64,000 nucleotides of DNA from Candidatus Doudnabacteria bacterium (GCA_031291995.1 JARLHZ010000004.1:5272-69271); one strand, 5' to 3'; shown: positions 9,079 to 34,977, counted from the first letter of the stretch. Made by a program: numbers and translations. The notes: generated by a model not told the origin, from the sequence alone.

Positions 9079-9082
9079 ATAA

Positions 9083-9190
9083 TGCCAAATTTCAGATTTC
9101 AAATATCAAATCAATGGCGAAGTTTAAAATTTAAAATTTAAAATTAGGATTTGATTTAAAATTTTTAATTTAAAATTTGTAATTGTGTCC
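9083..9190. repeat. word-built hairpin, caaatttcaaat / atttgaaatttg family
   Basis: ccaaatttcagatttcaaatatcaaatc ... gatttaaaatttttaatttaaaatttgtaattg are inverted arms of A/T-rich words. Confidence 0.6.
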
Positions 9191-9192
9191 CA

Positions 9193-10095: not shown

Positions 10096-10098
10096 TAA

Positions 10099-10200
10099 TT
10101 CGAAATTGCAAATATCAAATTTCAAATCAAGGCCAATATCTTAATTTTTTAATTTGGCATTAAAAATTGATTTGAAATTTGTAATTTGGTATTTGTCATT
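10099..10200. repeat. word-built hairpin, caaatttcaaat family
   Basis: cgaaattgcaaatatcaaatttcaaatcaa ... ttgatttgaaatttgtaatttggtatttg. Confidence 0.6.
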
Positions 10201-10861: not shown

Positions 10862-10983
10862 ACCTATTGCAAAATTTATCCGGATGTGCTATAATAAGAA
10901 TGTAAAAGGTAAAAGTTCGCTTAGAAATCAAAACAAAACACAATTTAATAACATCAAATCGGAGGCCAATAATTTAGGCCGAT

Positions 10984-11454
10984 TTGTATTGTGAAACAAA
11001 ATTAAAATCCAATATTATGAGGCATTATCACATGAGCCGAATTCTATATACTTTCATGGTAGCTTTGTTGTTAACTACCGCGGCCGTTTTTGTTTTGTAT
11101 TCGCAGGCGTTACCCGCAAAAGCGCTGCCGGTGTTTGTTCCTTATGGAGGCTTCGTAATTGCCGGCCCCTTGGCTGCCCAGAGTATTATTTGTCCGGAAT
11201 ATTCACTTGTAAATAATGTCGATTTGGAAAACGGTCTCGGGCCGGTTATTGGTATTGCCATCCCTGTCACGCCGCCGGCGCCGACTTATGATTTCAACGA
11301 TATATTTACACCCGGTAATCCTTTAGTGGGTGGCGTTCTGCCGACCCCCTGTGCGGTGGGCCTCGGAGGCGTCCAGGTTTATCCTATATTTTTTGACGCT
11401 CCGGACGGCCCGTTTTATTTGACCGGTACGGGCGGAATTCCGGGAACATATTAA
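10984..11454 (+). CDS. small secreted/membrane hypothetical protein (likely start at 11032, MSRILY...)
   Basis: N-terminal hydrophobic helix LYTFMVALLLTTAAVFVLY followed by a Gly/Pro-rich mature part. No family recognised. Confidence 0.35.
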   Translation: MYCETKLKSNIMRHYHMSRILYTFMVALLLTTAAVFVLYSQALPAKALPVFVPYGGFVIAGPLAAQSIICPEYSLVNNVDLENGLGPVIGIAIPVTPPAPTYDFNDIFTPGNPLVGGVLPTPCAVGLGGVQVYPIFFDAPDGPFYLTGTGGIPGTY

Positions 11455-11464
11455 AAAAACAAAT

Positions 11465-12331
11465 ATGGAAATTTCAAATCAGGAAGCTCAATCTGTTTCT
11501 CCTCAATCAATACAGTGGGGGCATTTTGGCATAATTATGTTTGCCGTAATTTTGCTTTTTGGCGCGGCGTACTTGGAAAAGCCCCAGCTGTTTGATTTTC
11601 ACAAAGCGCAAACCCTTGCCGAGGCCGGCTTGCCGCATTATGTTCCTTATGTTCCCTCGGCGGAAGACTTGCCTCAGCCGGCCGTGCTGGGGGCAAGCAC
11701 CGACCAGGGTCCGCAAATAATAGGGGACGACGGAAAAGTCGCCCCGGTAAACGTTGGACAAGTCTTGGGCGCCAGCACCCAGGGGGTTCAACTTTCTTTA
11801 AGCGATATTAAAGTAAATTCCATTCCCGACTCCGCGGGGTCAGTTAAACAATATTTTATCGATACGCAAGCCATAGAATCAAATGTTATTAGTAATAATG
11901 ATTTTGCAGGAGCTATAAACTCCGGAGACCAAGGGCAAATAAATATTCAGGCGCAAAAAATTTCCGGCTTGTTAGCCGCATTGCAGAAATTACCCGTTCC
12001 CCAGAGCCTTATAAAACTGCAGCAATTAAAAATCGTCCAGTATAATTCCACGATCGCTCTGCTGCAGAATTTTACGAAAGCCGATGAAAACCCCGACCAA
12101 ATTAGTGCCGATCTTCAGCAGTTTTTAAAGAGCCAGCAGGACTTGGATAATGAAAATATCGCGGTGGCGCAAAAATTTCCTCAGGACGACCCACAGTCGG
12201 CGTTGTATCTTAATGCTGACGGCTCCCCGGCTGTTTCGCAATCCACCATTGACAACTTTGGTTCCAGCGCGGTCACGCCAAGCCAAGTTTCCAGCTTAAC
12301 GAATTTAGACAACAGCGATGCGGGCCAATAA
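11465..12331 (+). CDS. hypothetical membrane-anchored protein
   Basis: TM helix HFGIIMFAVILLFGAAYL followed by a Q/S/D-rich hydrophilic domain. No recognisable family. Confidence 0.35.
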   Translation: MEISNQEAQSVSPQSIQWGHFGIIMFAVILLFGAAYLEKPQLFDFHKAQTLAEAGLPHYVPYVPSAEDLPQPAVLGASTDQGPQIIGDDGKVAPVNVGQVLGASTQGVQLSLSDIKVNSIPDSAGSVKQYFIDTQAIESNVISNNDFAGAINSGDQGQINIQAQKISGLLAALQKLPVPQSLIKLQQLKIVQYNSTIALLQNFTKADENPDQISADLQQFLKSQQDLDNENIAVAQKFPQDDPQSALYLNADGSPAVSQSTIDNFGSSAVTPSQVSSLTNLDNSDAGQ

Positions 12332-14276
12332 CGTCAAAAAAATAATTGCAGCGGCTTTAATTTTCAGCCAAATGGTTTTGATGCCGGGCTTGGCTTTTGC
12401 TTTGCCCCTTAGCGGTACCGGTACAGCTGCCGGGGCGGTCAATCCTGTGCCGATTAATGACAGCGGGTCGGTCGTCGGAAATACCGCATTTGATATTGCT
12501 TTAAAAGCAATTTTAACTTTAAATCCCGAATCCCTGGCGGTTTGCGATACTACACTGCAGGGATTCGAAAAAACGGATACTGTAACGCAGGTTGGGTTTT
12601 CTTTTTCTGCGATTATCGGTGGAGGAAATCTTTTGGCCGCGCAGTATGCCAAGGAGATTACCGCATACACCGCATATTTGGCGTGTCTTGAAGGCGATCC
12701 GACCTTGGGTTTTACGCCGGGCGTGCTCCCTGCTTTACAAGCTTTAACATCGCCAAACATTTATACCGCAAGCGTCAAGGAACAATATATTACTAAGGTT
12801 AACGCGAGTATTGAAGCCTATACCGCTAAATTGAACAGCGCCATTGCTAAATACAATGTTGCCAGCCAAAACATCTGGAAAGCCTTTTTAATTACCGTTC
12901 TTCTTCAAACCACGAAAGTCGTGGCTGACCAGTTGGTAAACAAGTTGGTGAATAATTTTAAAATTGCCAATATCAAAGCTTATACCGATTCGGTCGCGAC
13001 TTTAATGTATGACAACCAGTTTATTCGGGACAATTTTCCCGACAACCAGGGCCAGCTTATGGCCAGGGCTATTTTAACTAATCCGGCGTTCCGATTCCAG
13101 GTGCCGCCCGGGATTTACGTTCAAGCGGACACGGCTTTGGGTTATGCGACCTTGAATCCGGACGATCCCTATTTTTACAGCGACCTGGCCAAAGCCGGCT
13201 TTGCGGCTACGAATCCCTATTATTTACATACGACTTACGTAGGCGGTGTTGATCAATCTCATGGTTCGGCGCTGGCTTCGGCCAAGACTTTTATTTCCCA
13301 GGGCACCGGCTATAAAGCGCCGGTTAATTGCGCGGGCAGTCTGGCCCAGCAGCAGCAAATAGACACCGCGACCAAAGCCGCATCAGATCAGTTGGCTAAT
13401 AGAGCGGCATTGCTTCAAAGTTTGCAAAATGCCAGAAGTACCATGACTAATTTTACCACTGCGCAAATTCAGCAGATGGATAGCGACATAGCCAAAGCCC
13501 AGGCCGATTATAATACTGCGCTGGCCGCGTGGAATAATTTGCCATTTACCGTGACTGGTAATAATAGTGTTAGCAATTCAGCCGTGGGCGGCGGTAATAA
13601 CACCGAAGGCACCGCGGCTATTGTTATGTGCGAGGCTATTAATTCCCCGGCCGTGTTAGTCAATCAGGGTATAGATGCCATGTTTAAATCTTTAAACCTT
13701 GGCCAGTATACCCCCAACAACTTGCCCGGTTTCTTAAAGGCAATGGCTGGTATCGCAACACAAATCGGTTCCAGTATGGTTATGGGCGGCATTACCGGTC
13801 ACGCCGTAAATATAAATGAAAATATGGCTGCGGGCGCGGCGGTTTCCGTCACCCAAGCGGCGACCATTCAAACACTAAACAACAACACCGAAAGTAATAT
13901 GGCAAAGGGGATAGATCTTGAAGCTTACCCCAACTCGGGTGTAACCAACGGGTATACTTTAACCTGGACGGTTATGACGACTCAAATCGGGACCGCCAGT
14001 TATGCGGCGATTACCGGGCCGGGGGTAGTGGGTACTACGACAAGGCTGCCGCTCAGCGGGAGCATGCAAGTAGTTTCGCCGACGGGCGGCAATTATACAC
14101 TGACTGTATTTGATTCTTCCGGTAAACCACTGATTACCGCCGTAGCCACTGCCACACCGCAGCAGACCGCGTACAATAATAATGCAAACTCGCCAACCGT
14201 GGCCGGCGCGTTTACCAACCAGCCGGTAATTCTGCCCAGAGGCCTGGTGCCCGTATTTGCTCCGAGAGGGGAATAG
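12318..14276 (+). CDS. large secreted hypothetical protein (signal peptide)
   Basis: Signal peptide IIAAALIFSQMVLMPGLAFALP. 652 aa, A/T/N-rich. No family recognised. Confidence 0.4.
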   Translation: MRANNVKKIIAAALIFSQMVLMPGLAFALPLSGTGTAAGAVNPVPINDSGSVVGNTAFDIALKAILTLNPESLAVCDTTLQGFEKTDTVTQVGFSFSAIIGGGNLLAAQYAKEITAYTAYLACLEGDPTLGFTPGVLPALQALTSPNIYTASVKEQYITKVNASIEAYTAKLNSAIAKYNVASQNIWKAFLITVLLQTTKVVADQLVNKLVNNFKIANIKAYTDSVATLMYDNQFIRDNFPDNQGQLMARAILTNPAFRFQVPPGIYVQADTALGYATLNPDDPYFYSDLAKAGFAATNPYYLHTTYVGGVDQSHGSALASAKTFISQGTGYKAPVNCAGSLAQQQQIDTATKAASDQLANRAALLQSLQNARSTMTNFTTAQIQQMDSDIAKAQADYNTALAAWNNLPFTVTGNNSVSNSAVGGGNNTEGTAAIVMCEAINSPAVLVNQGIDAMFKSLNLGQYTPNNLPGFLKAMAGIATQIGSSMVMGGITGHAVNINENMAAGAAVSVTQAATIQTLNNNTESNMAKGIDLEAYPNSGVTNGYTLTWTVMTTQIGTASYAAITGPGVVGTTTRLPLSGSMQVVSPTGGNYTLTVFDSSGKPLITAVATATPQQTAYNNNANSPTVAGAFTNQPVILPRGLVPVFAPRGE

Positions 14277-14352: not shown

Positions 14353-14481
14353 ATAGTCACGGGTCTGCCGCCGAATATTTATGCTTAACGCGTTAGGCCT
14401 GACCCGGATAGTTATTTGCACTATAATTTGCATCCATCGGTTGCAAATAATTTCAATAAGCGTAAACTGTAGATAGCCATT

Positions 14482-14519
14482 TGGTAGACAAAACGTGCGG
14501 CCGCACGTTTTGTCTACCA
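14482..14519. repeat. 38-bp perfect palindrome, copy 1
   Basis: tggtagacaaaacgtgcggccgcacgttttgtctacca (centre GCGGCCGC). Confidence 0.9.
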
Positions 14520-14563
14520 ATATCAAATAAAAATTATTACAAGTAGTCTTAAAAATAAAGTTT

Positions 14564-14717: not shown

Positions 14718-15251
14718 ATGCCGAAAAAAGATTCGACCGCGGTAAATGAAGTTTTATTTTGGCTGTACGAGACGGGGAAGCTTTTGTCCGTAATTTTCGC
14801 GTCCAAGCACGAATGGAAAAGGCGGATGTGGAATCATACCTGGGGGAACTACAACAATTATAAATCCACGGTTTACCATATGCGGGAACAGGGGCTGGTG
14901 GAAATCGTGTCCAAAGATGGCTTAAGGTTTTTAAAACTTACGTCCAAAGGGCAAATGGAAGCATTGCTGGCCAAAGCAAAAGTCGTTAAGCGAGCAGTTT
15001 GGGATAAAAAATGGCGGGTGCTGATTTTTGACATCCCGGAAGACGCCAAATTGCAGAGGAACCAATTCAGGCGTCTGTTAAAAAGAAATGAATTTAAAAA
15101 ATTGCAGGCCAGCGTTTATGTAAACCCCTACCCGTTTAACCGCGAGGCAATTGAATATTTAAAAGAATCAGGTTTAATAAAGTACATTCGGATTTTAAAA
15201 GTTGAAGAAATGGACAGTGATGCCGATTTGCGTAAGATGTTTAATATATAG
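14718..15251 (+). CDS. wHTH + Cas2/VapD-fold (PaaX-like) small protein
   Basis: N-terminal winged-helix-like region (VYHMREQGLVEIVSKDGLRFLKLTSKGQ). The C-terminal region matches the Cas2 beta1-alpha1-beta2 pattern (KKWRVLIFDIPED...QFRRLLKRNEFKKLQASVYVN). No cas1 or array is present. Confidence 0.4.
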   Translation: MPKKDSTAVNEVLFWLYETGKLLSVIFASKHEWKRRMWNHTWGNYNNYKSTVYHMREQGLVEIVSKDGLRFLKLTSKGQMEALLAKAKVVKRAVWDKKWRVLIFDIPEDAKLQRNQFRRLLKRNEFKKLQASVYVNPYPFNREAIEYLKESGLIKYIRILKVEEMDSDADLRKMFNI

Positions 15252-15325
15252 GACTTACTTCTTTCAAAGCGGAACACATTTTTTAATGAGCTTCTGATAC
15301 TAGTCAAATAATCTAAAAATAAAAT

Positions 15326-15363
15326 TGGTAGACAAAACGCGCGGCCGCACGTTTTGTCTACCA
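15326..15363. repeat. 38-bp palindrome, copy 2 (one mismatch)
   Basis: tggtagacaaaacgcgcggccgcacgttttgtctacca. Confidence 0.9.
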
Positions 15364-15732
15364 AAGACAAGAGTTGTATTTTTATATTTATAGGCGATAT
15401 TGGCGAATGGCGCGGGTGGTGTGGCGTGGCAAATCAAATCGGATATTCTGAAGGCAATTTCGGTTTTAATCGACACTATTCCCCGGAGCCCCACTCCAGG
15501 GTTAACAATTATGTCATCCCGGAATTTTTCAGGGCTGTGAAAAATATCCGGGATCCAGTCAGGGCGGCATTCTGGATCCCGGCTCTCTACCTTCGTCAAG
15601 GCTACGGCAGACAAGTCGGATGTATTCGGCCGAGCTGATACACTAGCTATTTGGACTTGTTACCACGCTGCTCTGCCGCGGGGAGGGCTCATTGAAAATC
15701 TGATGCCAATCTTAATAATCTAGAAAGAAAAT

Positions 15733-15770
15733 TGGTAGACAAAACGTGCGGCCGCACGTTTTGTCTACCA
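15733..15770. repeat. 38-bp perfect palindrome, copy 3
   Basis: tggtagacaaaacgtgcggccgcacgttttgtctacca. Confidence 0.9.
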
Positions 15771-15955
15771 AAGACAGGTTTTGTTGAAATTATATTTTAT
15801 AGACGATATCGGTGCGTGGCGCGGGTGGTGCGGGGTGGAAAATCGTCCCGGATATTCTAAAGGTAATGTCGGTTTTATCTAATTTTTACCAATACACAAA
15901 ATTGTTCCGTTTCCCGTAGGTTTGCCGGACTATATTTTGACTTTAATTCACAAGT

Positions 15956-16119: not shown

Positions 16120-16147
16120 TTGTGATTTTTGGGGAATGTGGTATAAT
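16120..16147 (+). promoter_or_regulatory. sigma70-like promoter candidate for the VirB6-like gene
   Basis: -35 ttgtga at 16120-16125, a 16-nt spacer, and an extended -10 tgg-tataat at 16139-16147. It sits 24 bp upstream of the ATG at 16171. Confidence 0.4.
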
Positions 16148-16170: not shown

Positions 16171-19100
16171 ATGGGTGATTTATTAAGATTTAACCACTTG
16201 TTCCAGAAATTAAAATCAAAATTCTTTAAGAAATTACCCCCCGTTCTGTTTATTACTATACTTGCTCTTTCTACTGTGGCAAGCCTTTTTGCGTTACCCA
16301 TTCAGGCAAGTGCCGCGGGGAATACGTATAATTTTAGCGACATGCAGTTTACGGAAACCGTTCAAATTTGTAGCGGACCGACCGGACCATGCAGCAACAG
16401 TAATTTTATAAGAGTGGCTCAAAATCAGGATTTTTATGTTCAAGTTACCATAGCGGTTACGGGTTTAACCAACACTGCACATCAAACGGTAAACAGCCTT
16501 GACTTTAGTAATGATGAAATTTATGTTCCAGGTTGGACTAATACTAACTTAAACATTAGCGGTGTTGGGCCTAGTTTTGTTGCAAAAGTCACTCAGCAGC
16601 AGGCTCAGGTAATTCAACAAAAAATAGCGGCCGGCGCTGACCCTTCAACTATAGCCGGAGTTCCGTGTTACACAGAATCTATTACCACTACAGGAGGGGT
16701 GGCTACAAAGGGCGTGGCAGTTCTTGGTGGTACGGCTTTGTTTGTCGGAACAGCCGCGGCTACTGGAGGAGCCAGTGTTGTGGTGTACGGGTTGGCAACC
16801 GCGGCAGCCGCTGGTGGGGCAGCGTCAACTGTGGGTTGGGCTGCAATAAGTGGCACTAATTCCGTTACGAAGTGTGATGGGCCTGTCAGGCCATCGCCCC
16901 AAGGCAGCGGAACTGTGAATGTTGGAAGTAACGTATATCAGCAAATAATTGCGGTTCCTTCTACAAGTTTTTCCAATTTGGGCATTTCGCAACAGGCTAA
17001 TTCTGCCAATAATGCGAGTACAGAGCCGGTAAATGAATTGTATGTTGTACCCGATGTTTATTACAGCACTTTGGCCAGCTCGCTAGGAAATTTTTTCACT
17101 GGCACGACTGGATCGTTTATTTCGGCAGCTGGAGCTGGCAAAAGTATCTATGTCCAGCTTTATGACAACCAAACAGACCTGACTGCCCATTTGAATGACG
17201 CTGTTCCCGGTTCGGTGCCGAATAACGGATCAAATACCGGCTCCGGACAAAATGTAAACGGGGGCGGAGGTGGTAATCCGATTACCAATTTTTTAACGGA
17301 GATTATCGGGGTAATCTTGGGAATTTTCCAGGAAATAATCTTTGCCATTTTTTCTTTCCTTGTTGCGCCACTGCTTCAGGCCTTACTAAGCATCCAAGCT
17401 TATAAAGATACTTTTGTAGCGGTTATTTATCCCGGTTGGATTGTCATTCGCAACCTTTGCGACATTATGTTTATTGTGGCGCTTATTGTTATTGCCATGG
17501 CCACACTGTTCCGCATAGATAGCTATCAGTACAAACATTTGCTGGTACAGCTAATCATTGCAGCTTTATTAATCAATTTCAGTTTGGTGGTTGGCCAAGC
17601 GGTCTTAGGAATTGCCGACACTGTACAGGCACAATTTTTGCCTGCTAACGTTACCGTGATTAAATCCCTTGCCGGCGATTTGATGGTCAATAATTGGCGT
17701 AAGAGTTTTTTGACAAATGCCGCCCAACAATTATTTAGCGGTTCGTTTTCCGATATAGTTATACCATTTTTCTATTTGGCTTTGTCTTTGGGTAGCTTTA
17801 TGGTTTTTGTGGCCATAGCCGCGTTTTTATTCATTCGGATACTTGCTTTATGGGTATTGTTAATGATTTCACCCGTTGCGTATGTTTGCGGAATTTTACC
17901 TGCCACGGAACATTATCGGACCCAATGGTGGGAGACGTTTTTAAAGTACGCCTTCTTCACACCCATAATGGCATTTTTCTTGAACATGGCCGCTATAATG
18001 TCGAACACTTCCCAGACAACCCCAATTTTACAGCAGGTCAATAGCGCGGCCATAACATCAGCCTTTGGTAATTCCGATGTCGCCACTTTCGTGTTCAAGG
18101 TTGGCAGCAATATATTATTGTTGATTTTTCTAATTGCCGGCCTGATGGTCGCGGACAAATTCAGCATCATCGGCGCCAAACAAGTCTCCGACTTCGCCAC
18201 CAAATACGGCTGGCAAGCGCCGTTTGGGCTTACAGCCATGGGCGCCAAAGCGGGGGGTAATTTGATTCGTAGGAATGTAACAGAAAAAATTGGAGAAAAA
18301 ATCGGCGCGTGGAGCGGGATTGGGCAGAAAAATGAAGATAGAGCTAAGGCAGCAGCTATAAAAGGCAAAATATCCGCAGCTGAATTAGCGAGGCTAGAAG
18401 CGAAAGTTGCTAAGGGGGAGGCTCTAACAGACGAAGAAACAAAGGACATGGCCGCTTTACCTGCTAAAATTGCGCAGGCGGAAAGGATTCATGCGGATGC
18501 GGAAAGAAAACGTAAAAGTGCGGCTCGTCGCAGTGGAGCTTGGAGGGCTTTGTCTTTTTTTGATCCAAAAGTTGTTAGTGAAGCTTGGAAGAAAAGAGAA
18601 CATGAAAAAGAGGCTAAAGCCTATGAGCCAGCTATTGGTTATATGCAGGATACTTTAAATAGAGTTGTTCCTTCGGAATGGTTAAAATCAGGAGATTATC
18701 CAGGCAAGCCAGGTTCCGGAGGTATGGGCAAAAAAACTTTTCATGGTTTAGTAGCCAAGAGAGATCTGATATCAAAGGAAACAAAGGAATTGCAGGAGGG
18801 TGTAAGGACCCGCGATGATGCCTTTAAAATAGCTGATGCGGCGTTCGATTCAAATGATAAACATTTAATACATGCTGCATTGAAAATTCTGCAACATGGA
18901 AACTGGCAAGATGATTATATGAATGCCAGAGGCAGGTTGAGCAAAACTCACTCTATTCTTCGGTACATGAAGGATATGCATCAAATAATGAGTGAAAATA
19001 ACTTTGATGAAGAAGAAGAGCTTGAAGTTTTGGATGATTTGCAGGAAACAGGAGAAGGAGATAATCGCTTTCGGGCTTACGGTTATAGGTGTACTGATGG

Positions 19101-24782: not shown

Positions 24783-25181
24783 ATGGCAGATCAAAACAAA
24801 ATAATCCATAAGGATCTCAGTTATAAAATTGTCGGTGTTGCTTTTAGATCTTTTAAGGCAACAGGATATGGAATGCCTGAAAAGTACTGTCAAGGTGTGT
24901 TCGCTGCCGAACTTGAGAAAGCTGGGTTGCACTTTAATCGGGAAGTTTATGTTACTTTAAATTATGAAGGTAAAGTTATCACAAAGTATTTTTTAGATTT
25001 TATTGTTGAAGATTCGGTGGTTGTGGAATTAAAAGTTCGGCCAAAAATCGGATATGCCCATATTGAACAAGTAATGGCATACCTTAAAGCAACGAATAAG
25101 AAATTAGCGATTTTAATCTATTTTACCCAAGAAGGTGTGAAATATCGGAGAATCGTTAATTCTTACAACAAACTACAATGA
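24783..25181 (+). CDS. GxxExxY-family protein (PD-(D/E)XK-like)
   Basis: DLSYKIVGVAFRSFKATGYGMPEKYCQGVFAAELEKAGL...FLDFIVEDSVVVELKV...IEQVMAYLKATNKKLAILIYF. Confidence 0.7.
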   Translation: MADQNKIIHKDLSYKIVGVAFRSFKATGYGMPEKYCQGVFAAELEKAGLHFNREVYVTLNYEGKVITKYFLDFIVEDSVVVELKVRPKIGYAHIEQVMAYLKATNKKLAILIYFTQEGVKYRRIVNSYNKLQ

Positions 25182-25186
25182 GCAGG

Positions 25187-25222
25187 TTCGTATATTAATT
25201 TTAAATTTGTATATTCGCGATT
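25187..25222. repeat. right arm of the inverted repeat bracketing the GxxExxY gene
   Basis: ttcgtatattaattttaaatttgtatattcgcgatt. Confidence 0.7.
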
Positions 25223-25225
25223 ACT

Positions 25226-25909
25226 ATGAAGCTTGAAATGCAAAACAAAAAAAAGCCTATTGGGAAGCCGACGCAGAATTTTTTGCGTATTTCGGAAATA
25301 AAAAACGACACCGTGGTTATGGACGACGGAACTTTGCGGGTCATAATTATGGTGTCCAGCACCAATTTTGACTTAAAGAGCCAGGACGAACAGAATTCCA
25401 TTATTTTCGGTTTCCAGCGGTTTTTAAACAGCCTGGAATTTCCCGTCCAGATTCTCATGCAAAGCCGAAAAATGGAGATTGGCGGCTATTTGGAAAAATT
25501 AAAGAAATTGGCGGACAAGCAGACCAACGAGCTCCTCCGCGTCCAGACCAACGAATACGTGGAGTTTATTTCCCGGCTCATTGAGAACGCCAGCATTATG
25601 AATAAGAATTTTTATATTGTCGTCCCTCTGGGGGAAAGCATTTTTCCGGCCGCCGCGGGGTTCTTTAGCCGCGTATTCGGCAGGGGGCGGGAACGGGAAG
25701 TTACCGAGCGGATAGAAAATTTTGAAAAGGCCAAAGAAAAATTGGACAACCGCGCCACCTCGCTGGCCTCCAACCTTTCGGGTATTGGCATTCGGGCAGA
25801 ACGAATGAAGACGGAAGAAATTATCCAGCTGTATTATAATTCCTATAATTTTGAATCGGGCCCGCTGATAAACCCGGGAGAGCTTAAAGAAATCAAACTA
25901 TCACAATAA
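25226..25909 (+). CDS. protein resembling a VirB4/TrbE N-terminal domain (no ATPase motifs)
   Basis: FLRISEIKNDTVVMDDGTLRVIIMVSSTNFDLKSQDEQNSIIFGFQRFLNSLEFPVQILMQSR resembles the CagE/TrbE/VirB4 N-region. Confidence 0.3.
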   Translation: MKLEMQNKKKPIGKPTQNFLRISEIKNDTVVMDDGTLRVIIMVSSTNFDLKSQDEQNSIIFGFQRFLNSLEFPVQILMQSRKMEIGGYLEKLKKLADKQTNELLRVQTNEYVEFISRLIENASIMNKNFYIVVPLGESIFPAAAGFFSRVFGRGREREVTERIENFEKAKEKLDNRATSLASNLSGIGIRAERMKTEEIIQLYYNSYNFESGPLINPGELKEIKLSQ

Positions 25910-25923
25910 ATCAATTGATTAAT

Positions 25924-26030
25924 GTCAAATTATAAATATCAAATTTCAAATCAATGTCAAAGTTTGAAATTTAAAAAATTTGTAATTAGGTTTTGATTTG
26001 AAATTTGTAATTTGATATTTGAAATTTAAC
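25924..26030. repeat. word-built hairpin, caaatttcaaat family
   Basis: tgtcaaattataaatatcaaatttcaaatcaatgtcaaag ... ttttgatttgaaatttgtaatttgatatttgaaattt. Confidence 0.6.
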
Positions 26031-26032
26031 CT

Positions 26033-27880
26033 ATGTCTATTTTTAGCAAACTCACCGAACAGGATTTAGAACAAAAAAAGGCTCAGCTCAAGGAAAAGGA
26101 GAAGGAACATTCCCTGAGTTCGTCATTGGGCGATTTGGAAAAAACCTATAAGGAAGGCTTGACGACGTTAAAGGATATTATCGCGCCGTCGGCTTTAAAA
26201 TTTGAAGGGTCGCATTTTGAATTAAACGGCAAATACGGCCGCAGTTTTTTCGTGCTGGCCTATCCGCGCTTTTTGTCCAGCAACTGGCTGTCGTTTATAA
26301 TCCAGGCGGACGGAGCCCTGGATTTGTCGATGTTTATTTATCCCATAGACTCGGCGGACATTCTAAAAAAATTAAAGAGCAAGGTCGGGGAACTTGGTTC
26401 GCAAATGTCCATTAACCAGGAAAAGGGCATGGTCCGCGACCCGATGCTGGAGACGGCTTACAAAGACGTGGAAGGCCTGCGCGACAACTTAATGCAGGGT
26501 ACGGAAAAGTATTTTCGGTTCGCCCTGTACTTTACAATATACGCCAACGATTTAAAGGAACTGGACAAATCATCCTCGACCCTGGAAAGCAGCCTGGGGG
26601 CCAAGCTGATTGTTACCAAACGGGCGCTGCTTCAGACGCAGAACGGACTGAATTCCACGCTTCCCATGGGTTTGGACGAACTGGACGTGGCCAATAACAT
26701 GAATACCAGCCCGCTGTCCTCGTGTTTTCCTTTTGTGTCATCGGATTTGACTTCCAACGACGGGATTTTATACGGCATTAACCGACACAATAACAGTTTG
26801 ATATTATTTGACCGTTTTGCCATGGAAAATGCCAACTCCGTTGTGTTTGCCAAGTCCGGCGCGGGGAAGTCTTACGCGGTCAAATTGGAAGTTTTACGAA
26901 GTCTCATGGTTGGCACAGACGTTATTATCGTGGATCCGGAAAATGAGTACCAGCATTTGGCCGCGGCTGTTGGCGGAACTTATTTGAGCGTCAGTTTAAA
27001 TTCCCCGTCCCGCATTAACCCGTTTGATTTGCCGGTTGCCGTGGAAGGTGAAAGCAACGCGGACGTCCTGCGCAGTTCGGTTATTAACTTGCTGGGTTTG
27101 TTCAGTTTGATGCTGGGCAAGCTAAATCCCACCGAAGAAGCCATTATGGACAAGGCCATTTGGCAAACTTACGCCAAAAAAGATATTACATCCGAATTGG
27201 AAGATTTTAAAAACATTGAGTGCCCGACCATGAACGATTTGATGGAAATTTTAAACAGCATGGTCGGAGCCGAGAGCCTGGCTCAGCGGCTGACCAAATT
27301 TACCGAAGGCACTTTTGGCGGATTGCTAAACCAGGCGACCAACGTGGTGCTTAACAACCAGCTGGTGGTATTTTCCATCCGCGATTTGGAAGAGGAACTG
27401 AGGCCAATAGCCATGTATATTATTTTAAATTACATTTGGAATGTCGTCCGCAGCGAATTAAAGCGCCGCATTCTGGCCGTGGACGAAGCCTGGATACTCA
27501 TGCAGCATGAAGACAGCGCCAGGTTCCTGTTCGGTATTGCCAAACGCGCCCGTAAATATTACCTTGGCCTGACCACCATTACCCAGGACGTGGCCGACTT
27601 TTTGGCCAGCCCCTACGGCAAACCGATTGTGACCAACTCGTCCATCCAAATGTTGTTAAAACAATCCCCGGCGGCTATTAATGTAATCGCTGAAACATTC
27701 TTTTTGACCGAGGGAGAAAAATATTTATTGCTGGAAAGCGAAGTCGGCGAAGGGATATTTTTTGCCGGGCTGAAGCACGCGGCCATCAAAATTTACGCGT
27801 CCTACGTGGAAGACCAAATAATTACCACCGACCCCAAACAGCTTTTGGAAATTCAGGACAGCCAGGAAAAGTTGAACTAA
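26033..27880 (+). CDS. VirB4/TrbE-family type IV secretion ATPase
   Basis: Walker A FAKSGAGKSYAV, Walker B ILAVDEAWILM, and a VirB4-like N-region (GKYGRSFFVLAYPRFLSSNWLSFII...DLSMFIYPID). Confidence 0.65.
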   Translation: MSIFSKLTEQDLEQKKAQLKEKEKEHSLSSSLGDLEKTYKEGLTTLKDIIAPSALKFEGSHFELNGKYGRSFFVLAYPRFLSSNWLSFIIQADGALDLSMFIYPIDSADILKKLKSKVGELGSQMSINQEKGMVRDPMLETAYKDVEGLRDNLMQGTEKYFRFALYFTIYANDLKELDKSSSTLESSLGAKLIVTKRALLQTQNGLNSTLPMGLDELDVANNMNTSPLSSCFPFVSSDLTSNDGILYGINRHNNSLILFDRFAMENANSVVFAKSGAGKSYAVKLEVLRSLMVGTDVIIVDPENEYQHLAAAVGGTYLSVSLNSPSRINPFDLPVAVEGESNADVLRSSVINLLGLFSLMLGKLNPTEEAIMDKAIWQTYAKKDITSELEDFKNIECPTMNDLMEILNSMVGAESLAQRLTKFTEGTFGGLLNQATNVVLNNQLVVFSIRDLEEELRPIAMYIILNYIWNVVRSELKRRILAVDEAWILMQHEDSARFLFGIAKRARKYYLGLTTITQDVADFLASPYGKPIVTNSSIQMLLKQSPAAINVIAETFFLTEGEKYLLLESEVGEGIFFAGLKHAAIKIYASYVEDQIITTDPKQLLEIQDSQEKLN

Positions 27881-28040
27881 TTTCAAATTACAAATAACAA
27901 ATTTCAAATAAATTCCTAATTTTAAGCGCCAAATAATATCCAAAAGGCCGCGTGTTAAATTTCAAAAGTCCGGGTTTGGCCTTTGAAATTTGGATTTTGG
28001 CGTTGGTTTGATATTTGGAATTTGTAATTTGGAATTTTTT
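27881..28040. repeat. word-built hairpin(s), caaatttcaaat family
   Basis: tttcaaattacaaataacaaatttcaaat ... atttgaaatttggattttggcgttggtttgatatttggaatttgtaatttggaat. Confidence 0.6.
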
Positions 28041-28045
28041 ATTTT

Positions 28046-31000
28046 ATGGCCCAAGCAGCAACAACCGGAATTGACTCGGCGTCATCATCTGGAATACAGC
28101 CAACACCGGGACGTTCGACGGGAGGCGGGTCCAGAAAACCCAAGCTGATTGTTTTGGGCAAGCCGTTTTCCGGCGGAGCGTTTGTCTCTTACGTGTTTGT
28201 TAACGGCAAACCGGCTCCGGCAAATACCGCGGCGCAGTTAAAGCCGGGCGACGAAATCGCCATTGCCGGCGGCGGTTTGGTCGGGTTTTTAAGTTGGACA
28301 TTTTTCCAGCTGGGCCGCCCGGGAAAACCAATCGCGATTTTAACCGCGCACAGCGACAGCCGCGTGGTTTTTCAGGCGCCCGACTGGCATAACGCGTTTG
28401 ACCCGGGCCTGCCGATAATGCTCGCGTTTACCGACAAAGACAAAAATTCGGTATGGGGAATTCCGGTGTCTTTTTCCTTTGGCGAAGAATCCGAAAAAGA
28501 CCAGCAGCGGGCCGGGGGTAAAAAAATAGAAGACCAGCTAAATCGCAAGTTCGGTGAAGGGCAAAAAACCGGAGACGGTAATCTGGCAATGGAAGCGACC
28601 GGCGCGGCGCTCGCGGGTGTTTTGTCGCCGTTTATGCCGGGAGCCGATAAGGCGGCGGCGCGCGATGCTTTGGCTGCCGCTTTTAAATCGGGAGACTATA
28701 AGAAAGTTGAACAGGCAATCAACAATCTTAAAACGATGGGCAAGGATGGTGCTGAAATCATGCGGGAGTTCAGGGGTGTGCCGCCGCAGTTTCGATCGCT
28801 TTTAGACAAGGCTATTATTGATATAAATAATCAGACGATAACAAAGGCGGAGGTCGTAAGTAACTTGGAGAAAATCGCCGACACGGCTAATGTTGATGAC
28901 TTTGATGCTGAACAGGAGGGTGGCGGCCAACAAATTCAGACTTCAGAGGAAATATCATCAGCAACGTCAGGCGGCGGACAGTCCACTGTAAGCGTTCAGG
29001 AATCAGGCGGCGATGGGGCCTCATCTACAGTTGCAAGTTCAGGTTCCGCGGGCGGTACGGTTTCCTCAACGGTTACCGGTTCCGGCGATGGGGCGGGTAG
29101 CTCTACGGTCAATACCAACCAAAAGAGTACGGCGGAAATTAATCAACAGTCCACGGCGCGGGCGGCGTCGGGTGGCGGGGGCGGGACAAAAGTTACCGGT
29201 CAGGCTCAGGCGAGCGCGGGAGTTTCGGGGCAAGTTCCGATATCGGCCGGTAACCAGCAATCCTCCAAAGTCAGTAGCGGGATTTCCGGCGGCGTATCTG
29301 CAGCGGCAGGCGCAGGAATTGCGGCTGCGGTTGATTCAGCAGTCGGCGGGTTAAAAATTAGTTCAGTTGCCACAAAAGGACCGGCAGGTCCGGAAACTTT
29401 GCCAAAAAAACCGTCCGGCGAGTCGGCTGTTCTTGTGCAACCGGCCGGCGGGCAAAAATTGAACGTTACCGCGAAACTGGACCAGCGGACATTATCGGAT
29501 GTATCTGGCAAGCCTCAGGGTCAAGGGTTGGTTCCGGCATCTTTGATGAAAACCGGCGCTCCTGCGGGCTCGCCATCGGCAAAACAAGTGGGCAAGGGGC
29601 GAGGGGAAGTTGGCGGGGCTGCAAAAATGCAAGGATCGAAACAAGAAAATATCGCGCGCCCGTCCCCGCAGGAAGTTAATTTAAAATTAGAAACCCAAAC
29701 AATTTTAAAAGCGGAGGCAAAGACTGAAACTCCGACCGCATCTGAAGTCCCGTCCGGGATGAAAGAGATGTTCGAGAACGAGAGTGTCATGCGCCGGTTG
29801 AGTTTGGGGCGTGAAATTGCGGAACAGCAACCGGCCGAACCACCGTCTGGCGATAGCGCTCAACACGGGACTGGCAGGGAGGGCAAAGATCACGGGGCCC
29901 GGGATAAAGAGCCTTCACCGCCACCTCAAATTCCACGACGTCCGGAACCCGGAGAAATTAAGGAAGCCTTAAAGCCGCCAGCTCCTTTGCCGCCGAACCC
30001 GAAAGGGGAGTCAAATGCCGCTGGCGCGGCATCGGAAGGCCAGGGGCCTGAATCGGGACGCGAACCCAATGTCCCCGGGGAGCATTTGAACGCGCCTGCG
30101 TCTCCGGAAAATTTGGGCGAAGGCGGCCCGGGTGCGGCGGCCGGTGGAGCGCCGGTAGCGGCCGGTCAAGGTGAGGGTGGTACAGCCGGTCAAGGGGAAG
30201 AAGAAGCCGAGGAAGACGCGGCCGACGAAACGGGAGCTGGAGCGGCGGGTCGCCAGCCAGGTATGCCGGCAGTGCCTGTGCCGGGAGTGGCGGCCGGCAA
30301 GACCGGTCAGGGTAAAGGAAAAGGCGAAAAAGATAAACTTATTAAAGAAGCGACCGATTTGGTGAATACGGAGATGAACGGTTTCCTTAGCCAAGGAGCC
30401 ATTTGGGTGTGGGCGGTTGCCATTCCTTCGTTCGGACTTGCCGTAATTTTGGGTGCTGTTGTGGGCGATTTGCTGTTTGCCTTAAAAAAACGCCTGATTA
30501 AAATGGCGCTGGATAAAGTTTGGATTGCCAAAACTATTGTGGGTGACGAAATAACTCCCGACGAAATTGCCGACAACATCAATTTTAGCGTGGGCGTTAA
30601 GGCCAATGTCGCGGTAATGAATTTGATAACGGTATTAATGGTAGTACTTGTGATTATTTTTACCGGCGCGGTGGCATACTTAGGCTGTACATGGCCGCTG
30701 GGCAAGACAGTTGCCAGCGCGACAAATTATCAATTTACTATTTTAGGCGCCGCCGGTCTTAGTGGTGTTTGCCAGTCGATGACAAATGTTAATGTGTCAT
30801 TAAATAATTCCATTAATGCCTCCACCCCCGTCGGCTCCTGCGCCATTCTGCCTTCCGGAATCGCCACGCCGGGGCAGTTGGCTTTGACTTGTTTCGGGTC
30901 CAATCCCACCATAGACGCAACCGCCTCAATTGTCGCGGCGCATGAAAGCGGCGGGAACCCCGCAATTCCAAGCTCTGTAGATATATGCCAGCCCGGAGGA

Positions 31001-31294
31001 CAGCCGGTGTCGTTTGGACTATTTCAAATTAACATTACCAACCATAAAATTAACGGCCTTAACTGCCCGGCGGCATTCGATTATCCCGCCGGAGTCAGTC
31101 CGCGCGAATATGATGCCAACAACCATCAATGTACGATTGTAGATCAAACGTTATATAATAACTGTGTGACCGCGGCGGAAACAGCGGAATATAACATTGC
31201 GGCGGCCTGTCAAATTTCCGGCAACGGGACCAACTGGGGCGCCTGGCAGGCCGACATTAACGCTTGCGGGATTAGTAAAACAATTAGTCCATAA
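28046..31294 (+). CDS. giant low-complexity membrane protein with a C-terminal lytic transglycosylase (SLT) domain. A VirB1/PrgK-like cell-wall remodelling enzyme
   Basis: About 750 aa of G/S/A/P/E-rich sequence, a TM region (AIWVWAVAIPSFGLAVILGAVVGDLLF ... LITVLMVVLVIIFTGAVAYLG), then the SLT motif IVAAHESGGNP...QPVSFGLFQINIT. Confidence 0.55.
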   Translation: MAQAATTGIDSASSSGIQPTPGRSTGGGSRKPKLIVLGKPFSGGAFVSYVFVNGKPAPANTAAQLKPGDEIAIAGGGLVGFLSWTFFQLGRPGKPIAILTAHSDSRVVFQAPDWHNAFDPGLPIMLAFTDKDKNSVWGIPVSFSFGEESEKDQQRAGGKKIEDQLNRKFGEGQKTGDGNLAMEATGAALAGVLSPFMPGADKAAARDALAAAFKSGDYKKVEQAINNLKTMGKDGAEIMREFRGVPPQFRSLLDKAIIDINNQTITKAEVVSNLEKIADTANVDDFDAEQEGGGQQIQTSEEISSATSGGGQSTVSVQESGGDGASSTVASSGSAGGTVSSTVTGSGDGAGSSTVNTNQKSTAEINQQSTARAASGGGGGTKVTGQAQASAGVSGQVPISAGNQQSSKVSSGISGGVSAAAGAGIAAAVDSAVGGLKISSVATKGPAGPETLPKKPSGESAVLVQPAGGQKLNVTAKLDQRTLSDVSGKPQGQGLVPASLMKTGAPAGSPSAKQVGKGRGEVGGAAKMQGSKQENIARPSPQEVNLKLETQTILKAEAKTETPTASEVPSGMKEMFENESVMRRLSLGREIAEQQPAEPPSGDSAQHGTGREGKDHGARDKEPSPPPQIPRRPEPGEIKEALKPPAPLPPNPKGESNAAGAASEGQGPESGREPNVPGEHLNAPASPENLGEGGPGAAAGGAPVAAGQGEGGTAGQGEEEAEEDAADETGAGAAGRQPGMPAVPVPGVAAGKTGQGKGKGEKDKLIKEATDLVNTEMNGFLSQGAIWVWAVAIPSFGLAVILGAVVGDLLFALKKRLIKMALDKVWIAKTIVGDEITPDEIADNINFSVGVKANVAVMNLITVLMVVLVIIFTGAVAYLGCTWPLGKTVASATNYQFTILGAAGLSGVCQSMTNVNVSLNNSINASTPVGSCAILPSGIATPGQLALTCFGSNPTIDATASIVAAHESGGNPAIPSSVDICQPGGQPVSFGLFQINITNHKINGLNCPAAFDYPAGVSPREYDANNHQCTIVDQTLYNNCVTAAETAEYNIAAACQISGNGTNWGAWQADINACGISKTISP

Positions 31295-32257: not shown

Positions 32258-33445
32258 ATGAATAAAAAAGCCATTGCCATTTTAGGGGCCATATTTGTCT
32301 TGATTGTCGGGACTTTGGGTTTTTTGATATATCTTAAATACTCCGGTTCATCCAAAACCCCGGCTCCTTCCGCGAACCAAAATCAAAATGGAAATCCCGC
32401 CGCCGGCAGCCAGCCTGCCACCACGACAGCCCAAACGACCGGGCAGAATCCGGCTACGACAACTCCCGTTACCGGTCCGCCTCCCGCCATGGGGCTTTTG
32501 ACCTCGGACCAGGTGGTTTCACCCGCTTTATTTTTTAACGGCGGAGGTATAACCTATTTCGACAACCAGGGAAATTTATTCCAGGCGGCAATACAAACTA
32601 ACGCGGGGCAGTTGTCGTTAACCGGCAAAAAGCAACTGGATATCCCCACAAAGTCCAGCATCACAAAAATTTTCTGGCCGCAAAAAGGCAACGATTTTAT
32701 AATCCAGACCAATAATCCCGTCACCGGCCGGTACTCCTGGAGTTATTTTAACAGCACACTTGGGACTTATACCGATTTCCCGCCTCAGGTCGCGTCTTTT
32801 GACTGGATGCCAAACGGAACCCAAATCGCGTATATTTGGATAAACGGCGGCAAAGCAGTTTTGGAAGCGGGAGATCCGGCATTTAAATCATGGCAGAAAA
32901 TCGGGGATTTATATCAAAATGACAATGTTATAAGCGTGTCGCCGGACGGATCACAAATATTGTTTTACGAATCCGAGCCCGCCGGGACGCAAAATCCGAT
33001 TAATTCGGTGAGCATAGACGGTAAAGTCTGGAAGGGACTTATTAAAGACGGCTTTAATTACGGCGTGTTGTGGAGTCCGGATGGTCAGAAGTTTATTTTT
33101 GGGAAAAAAGATCCGGTCAGCCTTCAATTCCAATTGTGGTATGACAATTTGGCTTCCGGAGAAACTAAGAATTTGGGATTATTTACCACTACGCAAAAAG
33201 CCGTTTGGGGGTCTGACAGTAATACCATTTACGCCGCGGTGCCATCTTCGCCTGCCGCCAACCCAAACAGCCTGACCAACGACACTTTTTTCCGATTAAA
33301 CACAACTACTCTGGACAAACAGCAGTTCAGCATCGGTAATACGCCGGTGGACGGAGAAAATTTGTTTTTGAGTACGGATGGAAATGACCTGTTTTTTAAG
33401 AACGCGCAGGACGGCGGCTTGTATTATTTGAACGTTGCCCAATAG
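32258..33445 (+). CDS. membrane-anchored TolB-like (PD40/WD40-like beta-propeller) protein
   Basis: N-terminal TM, a T/P/Q-rich linker, then repeated SPDGSQILF / WSPDGQKFIF PD40-like motifs. Confidence 0.45.
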   Translation: MNKKAIAILGAIFVLIVGTLGFLIYLKYSGSSKTPAPSANQNQNGNPAAGSQPATTTAQTTGQNPATTTPVTGPPPAMGLLTSDQVVSPALFFNGGGITYFDNQGNLFQAAIQTNAGQLSLTGKKQLDIPTKSSITKIFWPQKGNDFIIQTNNPVTGRYSWSYFNSTLGTYTDFPPQVASFDWMPNGTQIAYIWINGGKAVLEAGDPAFKSWQKIGDLYQNDNVISVSPDGSQILFYESEPAGTQNPINSVSIDGKVWKGLIKDGFNYGVLWSPDGQKFIFGKKDPVSLQFQLWYDNLASGETKNLGLFTTTQKAVWGSDSNTIYAAVPSSPAANPNSLTNDTFFRLNTTTLDKQQFSIGNTPVDGENLFLSTDGNDLFFKNAQDGGLYYLNVAQ

Positions 33446-33642: not shown

Positions 33643-34977
33643 ATGCCCAAATCATCCGTAGTCTTCATTTGCTCCAACTGCCAGTATAGTTCGCCGCGTT
33701 GGCAGGGCAAGTGTCCCAATTGCGGGCAGTGGAATACCCTGGTGGAAAGCCGGGTTAAAATATCAAATTCCAAACATCAAATTTCCAAAGCCGCCGAGCC
33801 GGTGGATTTGGCAATGGTGGATATTAGCCAGCGAGCCAAAATTGTCAGCGGCATATCCGAGTTTGACGACGTGCTGGGCGGGGGCTTTGTTCCGGGCAGT
33901 TTGGTTCTGCTCGGCGGCGACCCCGGTATTGGCAAATCCACATTGGCTTTGCAGATTTCCATGCGGCTGGGAGAAAAAGTTTTGTATGTGTCCGGCGAAG
34001 AATCGGTCCATCAGATAAAATTGCGCTCGGGCCGGGTCAGTGAAAGCCAGCAGCTAAATGTTTTAGCCGAAACGGATTTGGACGCGGTTTTGGCGTCGAT
34101 AGAAGCACGGTCTCCTGAATTGGTGGTTATTGATTCCATCCAAACAATGTACAGCCAGGAGGCCAGCGGCGTGGCCGGCGGCGTGGCGCAGGTTACATCG
34201 GCAGTGCAAAAAATTATGCGCTTGGCCAAGCAAAATCACATTTCTTTTATTTTAATCGGCCATGTTACCAAAGAAGGTTATTTGGCCGGACCTAAAACTT
34301 TGGAGCATATGGTGGACACAGTGTTGTACCTGGAAGGGGAGCGGTTCGCCAGTTTTCGCATTTTGCGATGCGTGAAAAACCGCTTCGGGACAACCAATGA
34401 GGTGGGAGTGTTTGAGATGCAGGGACAGGGTCTGGCCGAAGTTAAAAACCCATCGCAGTTGTTTTTGGGCGAGGAACAAATGCAGGCCAGCGGGAATATT
34501 ATAACATCGGTAATGGAGGGCAGCCGGGCTCTTTTGCTGGAAATTCAGGCTTTAACTTCCGCAACCAACTTTGGTTACCCAAAGCGCACCACGGCCGGTT
34601 TTGATGTTAACCGCCTGCAGCTGCTTACCGCCATTCTTTCCAAGCGGGCGGGGCTAAATTTAGCCAACCAGGACATTTATATTAATGTTGTCGGCGGCAT
34701 AAAAATAGACGAGCCGGCCGCCGATTTAGCCGTGGCGCTGGCCATTGTCAGCAGTTTAAAAGAAGCGGTGGTAGCCGATACTATTGTCGTAGGGGAATTG
34801 GGGCTTTCCGGCGAAGTCCGCTACGTGCCAAACTTGGAGAAACGGATTAAAGAAGCGGAAAAATTGGGATTCAAAAAAATTATCTGCCCCCGCATGCGCC
34901 AAGGTTATGATATTAAAAACGCAAAAATAAAAATCCTGCCGGTAAAAACCTTGCAGGAAGCGATAAACTTAATATAA
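33643..34977 (+). CDS. radA: DNA repair protein RadA/Sms
   Basis: Zinc finger CSNCQYSSPRWQGKCPNCGQW, Walker A GGDPGIGKST, KNRFG motif CVKNRFG, and a Lon-like C-terminal domain. Confidence 0.85.
   Translation: MPKSSVVFICSNCQYSSPRWQGKCPNCGQWNTLVESRVKISNSKHQISKAAEPVDLAMVDISQRAKIVSGISEFDDVLGGGFVPGSLVLLGGDPGIGKSTLALQISMRLGEKVLYVSGEESVHQIKLRSGRVSESQQLNVLAETDLDAVLASIEARSPELVVIDSIQTMYSQEASGVAGGVAQVTSAVQKIMRLAKQNHISFILIGHVTKEGYLAGPKTLEHMVDTVLYLEGERFASFRILRCVKNRFGTTNEVGVFEMQGQGLAEVKNPSQLFLGEEQMQASGNIITSVMEGSRALLLEIQALTSATNFGYPKRTTAGFDVNRLQLLTAILSKRAGLNLANQDIYINVVGGIKIDEPAADLAVALAIVSSLKEAVVADTIVVGELGLSGEVRYVPNLEKRIKEAEKLGFKKIICPRMRQGYDIKNAKIKILPVKTLQEAINLI

Follow-up and report, generated by a model that had tools for sequence, protein, structure and literature searches.

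Why should a candidate phyla radiation (CPR) bacterium keep, among its housekeeping genes, a cluster that looks like a conjugation machine when no relaxase, coupling protein or integrase lies beside it? This is the question raised by positions 16171 to 31294 of a 64,000-nucleotide stretch of DNA from Candidatus Doudnabacteria (“the window,” by which we mean the whole stretch), where a reading of the sequence alone (the sequence-only reading) had seen the genes of a type IV secretion system (T4SS). The open reading frames (ORFs) that it named are all present where it placed them, on the plus strand, and its attribution of the DNA to a CPR genome is borne out by the first protein of the cluster, 1253 amino acids (aa) long, which matches at 100% identity a hypothetical protein from a metagenome-assembled genome of Candidatus Doudnabacteria. 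Our answer is that the cluster very probably encodes a chromosomal, vertically inherited T4SS of the Patescibacteria clade that is nested in MPF_FATA.

Profile searches and ORF scans covered the 64-kb window. The comparison set consisted of 81 loci, namely the window and 80 related loci (cited here by their L numbers) found by scanning a genome collection with VirB4; the presence of the window's proteins in these loci was scored by tblastn. All 80 closest genomic relatives by VirB4 are Patescibacteria, mostly Doudnabacteria.

Core components of the apparatus

As judged from profile matches and modelled structure, three parts of a T4SS are present, namely a channel of the VirB6 type, a membrane ATPase module made of VirB3 and the split VirB4, and a wall hydrolase resembling lysozyme (Table 1). 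The VirB4 scores 363.8 bits against conju_CD1110 (VirB4-like conjugal transfer ATPase; cutoff 325) and in Pfam matches P-loop_TraG (E 1.2e-27), AAA_10 (5e-10) and CagE_TrbE_VirB (21.6 bits; gathering threshold, GA, 21). Against the PDB it matches the C-terminal domain of a Firmicute VirB4 (4ag5) at E 2.5e-45 and TrwK of R388 at 2.7e-5; its affinity appears to be with MPF_FATA, because CD1110 is the best curated family and 4ag5 lies far ahead of TrwK. The translation shows both Walker motifs, A as KSGAGKS and B as ILAVDEAW, so that the VirB4 ATPase with these motifs seen in the sequence-only reading is confirmed.

The same reading had listed an “extra” protein resembling the N-terminus of VirB4. 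The resemblance stands, but the protein is not extra: by its coverage of VirB4 models it would be one half of a split VirB4, since the 227-aa and 615-aa ORFs cover collinear, non-overlapping parts of three models (positions 2-136 and 176-728 of conju_CD1110, 98-233 and 271-893 of VirB4_plasma, and 133-172 and 294-375 of TraC_F_IV, respectively) and have no similarity to each other by BLASTP, a result consistent with complementary and not paralogous pieces. The smaller protein also matches TrsD (NF041427; E 4.9e-6, 26.5 bits over 49 residues, under the cutoff of 200 bits), and on these alignments it is probably best called TrsD-like or a VirB4 N-terminal fragment. It was found in 79/81 loci, always immediately 5' of VirB4; the split is universal in the clade and not a recent break. 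One locus, L071, has a VirB4 ORF of 1108 aa (8510-11836 in that locus) with ~490 aa added upstream of the conserved start and a TrsD-VirB4 gap of 1495 nt, possible signs of an intein-like insertion or of fusion to an inserted element. The small VirB3/PrgI-like membrane protein of that reading holds up as well, with a PF12666 score above GA and the two transmembrane (TM) helices expected of VirB3.

The 1253-aa protein had been described as polytopic and TrbL/VirB6-like, which is upheld by its homologues and by its fold and not by any profile match of its own. The protein itself has no Pfam match (E <=0.1; TrbL PF04610 included) and no NCBIfam match; among its 68 homologues, 37 were aligned, and 20 of the 37 individually match Pfam TrbL/VirB6 (PF04610), with a best E of 2e-7. 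An AlphaFold model of the conserved core (aa 360-720) is confident (predicted local distance difference test, pLDDT, 85.3; predicted template modelling score, pTM, 0.78), and when Foldseek compared this model with 350,542 PDB chains, R388 TrwI/VirB6 took all six top places (prob 0.92-1.0, E 3.9e-3 to 0.37, target TM-score 0.41-0.55). Two independent fold searches agree, and the predicted structure is a polytopic helical core with the VirB6 fold. When the family profile was compared with the PDB by sequence nothing relevant was found, the comparison of folds alone succeeding; the R388 proteins (PDB 7O3V, 8RTD) share just 13-15% sequence identity with the window protein, which has in addition an exodomain of ~330 aa and a cytoplasmic tail of ~570 aa. 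Its layout, with a signal/anchor, the exodomain, a core of at least five TM helices (aa ~380-670) and the tail, fits the “extended VirB6” of a 2025 T4SS review. The sequence-only reading had named the lack of a VirB6 profile match as a ground for giving up the assignment, and nominally this is what the protein itself gave; the predicted structure is nevertheless VirB6-like. We regard the protein as a probable VirB6, an identification supported by family-level Pfam matches and fold.

The 1082-aa protein opens with ~780 aa of low complexity, followed by two TM helices (aa 788-806 and 855-873) and the SLT_3 domain. PF18896 scores 26.3 bits on the whole protein and 28.4 (GA 27) on its C-terminal 323 aa, and an alignment of 12 sequences (the protein and 11 homologues) shows no variation in the GLFQIN motif or in the Glu-Ser of HESGGNP, in keeping with the lytic-transglycosylase end that had been read there. 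With the catalytic Glu present, it is predicted to be an enzyme and would take the VirB1 role. Its homologues match PF18896 in 8/16 cases and PF18895 (T4SS_pilin) in 6/16, the latter six being fusions of ~300 aa that join a T4SS_pilin domain to a lysozyme domain. The 1082-aa protein shares with these fusions the layout of two TM helices followed by lysozyme; its own two-TM module was considered as a VirB2-like pilin but is not claimed as one, as it has no PF18895 match and neither the SAGN nor the INPxL motif.

Table 1. Positions of the T4SS genes, associated features and flanking genes, counted from the first nucleotide of the window.
Feature	Position	Strand	Basis or remark
Extended VirB6/TrbL-like channel protein, 1253 aa	16171-19932	+	family-level Pfam and fold
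PrgI/VirB3-like two-TM protein	24201-24653	+	PF12666, E 3.9e-13, 50.2 bits (GA 27)
TrsD-like protein, 227 aa, detached VirB4 N-terminal fragment	25226-25909	+	N-terminal positions of VirB4 models only
VirB4 ATPase core, 615 aa, MPF_FATA/CD1110-type	26033-27880	+	NCBIfam conju_CD1110
VirB1-like wall hydrolase, 1082 aa	28046-31294	+	SLT_3 domain (lysozyme-like) at C-terminus, aa ~958-1067
Conserved cytoplasmic partner X, 518 aa	19964-21520	+	alignment of 13 orthologues
Conserved cytoplasmic partner Y, 507 aa	22173-23696	+	alignment of 13 orthologues
Bitopic membrane protein, 156 aa	31495-31965	+	fixed slot downstream of hydrolase
Membrane-anchored PD40/TolB-like beta-propeller	32258-33445	+	PF07676; N-terminal TM
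Three upstream proteins (156, 288, 652 aa)	10984-14276	+	syntenic with T4SS, candidate members
PaaX_M/Cas2-like-domain protein	14718-15251	+	PF20803, E 1.1e-18; same position in L001
Candidate operon promoter	16120-16147	+	TTGTGA, 16-nt spacer, TG-TATAAT; consensus 10/12
141-aa ORF	21583-22008	+	lineage-specific insertion between X and Y
IVP cassette with four-helix-bundle 23S_rRNA_IVP gene	23706-24177	+	ORF 23749-24123
PDDEXK_3/GxxExxY cassette	24655-25223	+	ORF 24783-25181
ORF-less heptad hairpin	10094-10203		gene junction; same CAAATNN array
ORF-less CAAATNN hairpin	25913-26041		TrsD-VirB4 junction; inverted repeat, RNA fold z -3.45
ORF-less heptad hairpin	27879-28036		VirB4-hydrolase junction; inverted repeat, RNA fold z -4.31
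RecO	2163-2873		flanks T4SS locus
UvrD/PcrA	6874-9078		flanks T4SS locus
RadA	33643-34977		flanks T4SS locus
RecG	35598-37667		flanks T4SS locus
IS200/IS605-type Y1 transposase	43433-44110		PF01797, E 8.9e-17; adjoins tRNA-Glu

Inheritance, setting and probable function

The window is the ordinary chromosome of a CPR bacterium, with IleRS, RecO, UvrD, KsgA and DUF192 upstream of the cluster and RadA, RecG, tRNAs, ScpAB, AspRS and Lgt downstream. From ksgA/DUF192 to radA the order of genes is kept across the 80 related loci, and on one of them, the 1.21-Mb contig L001, it is identical: CHAP/LysM, UvrD, KsgA, DUF192, four secreted hypotheticals, PaaX_M, the VirB6-like protein, X and Y (two cytoplasmic partners described below), PrgI, a TraC-like protein (TrsD), VirB4, a large protein, PD40 and RadA. 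PrgI was detected in 73/81 loci and the PD40 protein, directly downstream, in 70/81; the counts for the VirB6-like protein (55/81) and Y (53/81) are held down by contig ends and sequence divergence. VirB4 is 73-92% identical across the Doudnabacteria loci. Because order and chromosomal site are the same across loci and VirB4 is so well kept, the T4SS appears to belong to the vertically inherited core of the lineage and to be under purifying selection, and not to be a mobile element or a decaying integrative and conjugative element (ICE).

Relaxase, coupling protein (VirD4/T4CP), VirB11 and integrase were sought among ORFs of 100 aa or more that do not lie within larger genes and among candidate small ORFs, and none was found in those scanned in the 64-kb window. 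The sequence-only reading, which had seen none of the four and concluded that this is no canonical conjugative element, was right on both counts. A 655-aa ORF (53114-55081) tried as a T4CP proved to be AspRS, and the sole transposase of the window lies 12 kb from the cluster. The lack of a relaxase and coupling protein nearby, together with strict vertical conservation, suggests that the system is not used for conjugation.

We propose instead that the extended VirB6-like protein would form a membrane channel, that PrgI/VirB3 and the two-piece VirB4 would act as the inner-membrane motor and that the membrane-anchored SLT_3 protein would open the peptidoglycan, with X and Y and their disordered linkers, the bitopic protein and perhaps the TolB-like propeller accompanying the core genes. 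These parts may assemble into a monoderm-type T4SS at the interface between epibiont and host, through which macromolecules would cross the zone of contact, whether as exported effectors, as host material taken up, or both. In Southlakia epibionticum, whose strain ML1 (Wang et al., 2023) is the functional example and Saccharibacteria counterpart of such a system, transposon sequencing is reported to show that epibiotic growth requires the T4SS genes and that this requirement is independent of ComEC competence (PMC12857230); a role at the host contact zone is proposed for them.

Several points weigh against this proposal. Other parts of the genome, beyond the 64-kb window, could encode a coupling protein or a relaxase, and neither the direction of transport nor the nature of the substrate can be read from the DNA. 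No window ORF tested, small ORFs included, matches the VirB2-like pilin families (PF04956/PF18895), and no VirB8-like protein was found in the window, the candidate d187 having failed the fold test. The two-TM topology of the hydrolase would, moreover, place its lysozyme domain inside the cell, a problem that would be removed if the weakly hydrophobic segment at aa ~70-88 were a third TM helix.

The flanking genes invite another reading, namely a machine that imports nucleic acids in the manner of archaeal Ced or H. pylori ComB and feeds them to the recombination and repair proteins encoded next to it, which we hold to be unlikely. Four such genes (RecO, UvrD/PcrA, RadA and RecG) stand on either side of the T4SS, the radA neighbourhood is kept downstream in 62/81 loci, and comF, recG and radA are associated with T4SS genes in class ABY1 (Quinonero-Coronel et al., 2025; PMC12102498); this neighbourhood may, however, merely mirror conserved chromosomal order. 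Import systems likewise have no relaxase or T4CP, and a 2026 preprint proposes RNA acquisition from hosts, loosely linked to VirB4, but no DNA-binding or DNA-processing component could be identified within the cluster. VirB4 does match CedB weakly (E 1.2e-11, far under the cutoff), although its best match is the conjugative family. In S. epibionticum the T4SS is essential and ComEC competence dispensable, which argues that what makes the system essential in that species is something other than uptake for recombination. A narrower version, in which host nucleic acids are imported with X and Y as receiving adaptors that replace the coupling protein and feed recombination or salvage, we consider rather unlikely.

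It is quite improbable that the apparatus serves mainly to attach the cell to its host by a surface pilus or an adhesive fibre, with little or no translocation. In favour of this, other Patescibacteria commonly carry arrays of VirB2-like pilins, which are essential there, a T4SS_pilin domain is often fused to homologues of the 1082-aa protein's C-terminal domain, secreted proteins are encoded upstream of the cluster, and tubular structures at the host interface have been reported for a cultivated relative lineage. The 64 kb nevertheless hold no recognisable VirB2-like pilin, the two-TM module of the hydrolase is without pilin motifs, and in known T4SS the building of a pilus and translocation are not mutually exclusive. 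Least credible of all, and very improbable, is a decayed, non-functional integrated conjugative element stripped of its integrase, relaxase and coupling protein: a gene order and family affinity like those of conjugative T4SS in Gram-positive bacteria, the absence of a DNA-processing module from the window, the interspersed selfish small genes and repeats and a VirB4 in two ORFs would all suit it, but the core ORFs are all intact, the conservation of VirB4, TrsD and PrgI in the same order and site points to purifying selection, the TrsD/VirB4 split is clade-wide and not recent, and X and Y have kept their frames through inserted repeats.

Partner proteins, passenger cassettes and repeats

Besides its core genes, the proposed secretion system has two partners, X and Y, that had been set down as large low-complexity hypotheticals. 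That they belong to no known family holds: neither has a TM helix, X has no Pfam, NCBIfam or PHROG match, and Y has no NCBIfam or PHROG match and no Pfam match in any of 13 orthologues. Their N- and C-terminal modules are conserved, however, and the linkers between them are hypervariable and disordered. X consists of an N-terminal helical module, a hypervariable linker and a C-terminal QEIDRKLEELEKR motif; Y begins with an “ER.EWL.LL.LMNDKQL” module and an LSHIMNLPK motif and continues through a proline-rich hypervariable linker to a conserved C-terminal module of ~95 aa. Both are argued to be expressed, because the reading frame is kept through inserted repeats.

The Y linker contains an AGCRGAC/AGCAAAC heptanucleotide array (22323-22394, 22669-22747 and 22878-22991) with periods of 7 and 14 nt, which encodes QTADSGQRT-like peptides and, among Y and its 12 orthologues, is specific to the window. 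On the minus strand, a sigma-70-like promoter (12/12, extended -10; 22146-22119) lies between the 141-aa ORF and Y, and a GC-rich terminator-like hairpin (21234-21209) lies in the window-specific part of the X linker; the two may suggest antisense transcription or remnants of inserted DNA.

Other genes keep company with the cluster. The bitopic 156-aa protein is not VirB8-like, the combination of an N-terminal TM helix with an NTF2-like fold not being found in it. The slot between hydrolase and PD40 holds one of two bitopic families (n=12 and n=10) that share no BLAST similarity; in the window's closest relatives it is the other family that fills the slot (e.g., L008:14910-15455), and that family could still be VirB8-like. 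The PD40/TolB-like propeller travels with the T4SS genes and is perhaps a member. Upstream, the secreted hypotheticals of the sequence-only reading are supported by a single predicted N-terminal TM or signal segment in each of the three proteins; they have no Pfam or PHROG match, their counterparts stand in the same place in L001, and the 652-aa protein recurs in 23 related loci.

The PaaX_M/Cas2-like protein is a possible regulator. Its gene is bracketed by inverted arms of 60 nt (14480-14539 and 15307-15365) that hold a perfect 40-nt palindrome, TTGGTAGACAAAACGTGCGGCCGCACGTTTTGTCTACCAA, present in three copies (14480-14520, 15325-15364 and 15732-15771) and only upstream of the cluster. A tandem duplication of ~407 bp (15307-15877) repeats the palindrome within the 920-bp non-coding leader of the VirB6-like gene. 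The palindrome occurs in none of 81 related loci, gave only chance-level Rfam matches over its region and scores as a minus-strand intrinsic terminator (fold z -8.2). The candidate promoter, a pattern match only, ends 24 nt before the VirB6-like ATG.

The selfish cassettes that had been read inside the operon are real, variable, more structured than that reading had it and in many cases bounded by inverted repeats. The IVP, PDDEXK_3 and 141-aa genes are passenger cassettes at gene junctions and not parts of the T4SS, because they are not conserved and their position changes between genomes. L001 has none of the three, and the 141-aa ORF, which has no Pfam, NCBIfam or PHROG match, was found elsewhere just in L053, at the same junction. 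The IVP gene (PF05635, E 2.2e-12; TIGR02436, E 1.1e-18) lies between 44-nt arms (23706-23749 and 24134-24177) that are 84% complementary, and the PDDEXK_3 gene (PF13366, E 5e-27; TIGR04256, E 1.2e-27) between 35-nt arms (24655-24690 and 25188-25223) with an inverted-repeat score of 24 against a shuffle maximum of 10.

Across the 80 related loci, small co-oriented ORFs occupy junctions that differ by genome (e.g., L002-L027, L045, L053, L066). They include PDDEXK_3 (n=14) and four-helix-bundle families (n=8 and n=6) and, more rarely, GIY-YIG-like, MazF-like, NYN-like, AbrB-like and c141 ORFs. The occupied gaps form a narrow class of 428-572 nt, and most genomes keep these junctions tight, at <40 nt; at the TrsD-VirB4 junction, scored in 70 loci, 39 are tight, 13 carry an ORF and three only a hairpin. 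Flanking inverted repeats exceeded those of shuffled sequences in 6/8 cases for IVP_A, 2/6 for IVP_B and 3/13 for PDDEXK_3, against 0/22 for control genes in fixed slots. The cassette arms are heptad-periodic, the heptad itself differing between genomes.

Three ORF-less hairpins (RNA fold z -3.4 to -4.3) are built from one such heptad, CAAATNN, whose array has 33 matches in the window where 0.09 are expected, all of them between 9 and 34 kb. Further sites lie at 9086-9111, 21035-21107, 22386-22449 and 33764-33782, and copies run in frame through the parts of X and Y that encode their disordered linkers, yielding peptides like ITNNKFQISNG. The array may serve for docking or for processing of the RNase III type, or it may represent an empty cassette.

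A second 23S_rRNA_IVP/bAvd-like gene (51703-52059, minus strand) sits between scpA and a ybaK-like gene with gaps of 15 nt and without a flanking inverted repeat, so these small genes are not confined to the T4SS operon. The idea that the IVP gene is the Avd of a diversity-generating retroelement was set aside, as no ORF scanned in the window matches a reverse-transcriptase family and the IVP family moves as a cassette bounded by inverted repeats. ORFs of the 23S_rRNA_IVP family are known from rRNA insertions in CPR (bioRxiv 10.1101/2024.02.27.582315). Like those intervening sequences of rRNA, the window's element has a small four-helix-bundle ORF between inverted repeats able to form a long stem; unlike them, the elements here stand at junctions of a protein-coding operon, always in the orientation of the operon, and alternate with PDDEXK_3 and other small ORFs. 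Literature searches on IVP and GxxExxY cassettes outside rRNA returned nothing specific and no account of them as junction cassettes in protein-coding operons. Their repeated invasion of operon junctions offers a natural data set on selfish elements in essential operons of reduced genomes.

Relation to known type IV secretion systems

The type of system described here is already published, and the window holds a typical, ordinary and well-resolved member of it; component profiles, gene order and the published survey agree with the sequence-only reading of a minimal Gram-positive-like T4SS in a CPR genome. In their survey of 3,035 Patescibacteria genomes, Quinonero-Coronel et al. (2025; PMC12102498) described a monophyletic VirB4 clade nested in the monoderm MPF_FATA, with TrsD as the commonest partner of VirB4, PrgI/VirB3 common, VirB6 sparsely detected (which they put down to extreme divergence), VirB8 rare, lysozyme-type hydrolases in place of VirB1, relaxases almost always missing and ksgA in the neighbourhood. 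The window system likewise is chromosomal and vertically inherited, has no relaxase or T4CP nearby and has a VirB4 of apparent MPF_FATA affinity, preceded directly by the TrsD-like gene and, further upstream, by PrgI/VirB3; the genes next to virB4 include those for a VirB6 homologue and a lysozyme-type hydrolase, and ksgA, radA and recG lie in the neighbourhood.

Against this background, the locus has particulars of its own. At 1253 aa its VirB6 belongs to the extended type, TrsD and VirB4 are clearly complementary, the hydrolase is very large and of low complexity, a slot is fixed for a bitopic protein, and unlike many Patescibacteria T4SS it has no recognisable VirB2-like pilin or pilin array near virB4. 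The operon has been invaded by small cassettes bounded by inverted repeats, and X, Y, the low-complexity hydrolase (810-1080 aa) and the bitopic protein match no Pfam, NCBIfam or PHROG models tried. Patescibacteria T4SS are among the few machines tied experimentally to the epibiotic lifestyle of a large uncultivated radiation; this locus adds little to the concept but sets out clearly the conserved parts of the Doudnabacteria version, among which the extended VirB6, the split VirB4, X and Y, the giant lysozyme protein and the bitopic slot are concrete candidates to supply the adaptor and channel functions still missing.

The Gram-positive prototypes of such systems are trsC-trsD-trsE-trsG of pGO1/pSK41, prgH-prgI-prgJ-prgK of pCF10 and CD1110 of CTn2. 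Unlike these conjugative systems, the one in the window lies on neither a plasmid nor an ICE and has no relaxase, coupling protein, oriT-processing genes, PrgB-like adhesin or VirB8-like PrgL/TraM, and its hydrolase has a lysozyme-like domain only, whereas PrgK and TrsG join SLT with CHAP or LytM. What it shares with the MPF_FATA conjugative operons of Gram-positive bacteria is the order of its genes, from a VirB6-like protein through a VirB3-like protein, TrsD and VirB4 to a wall hydrolase, and with the pGO1 subclass in particular it shares TrsD and VirB4 as two genes.

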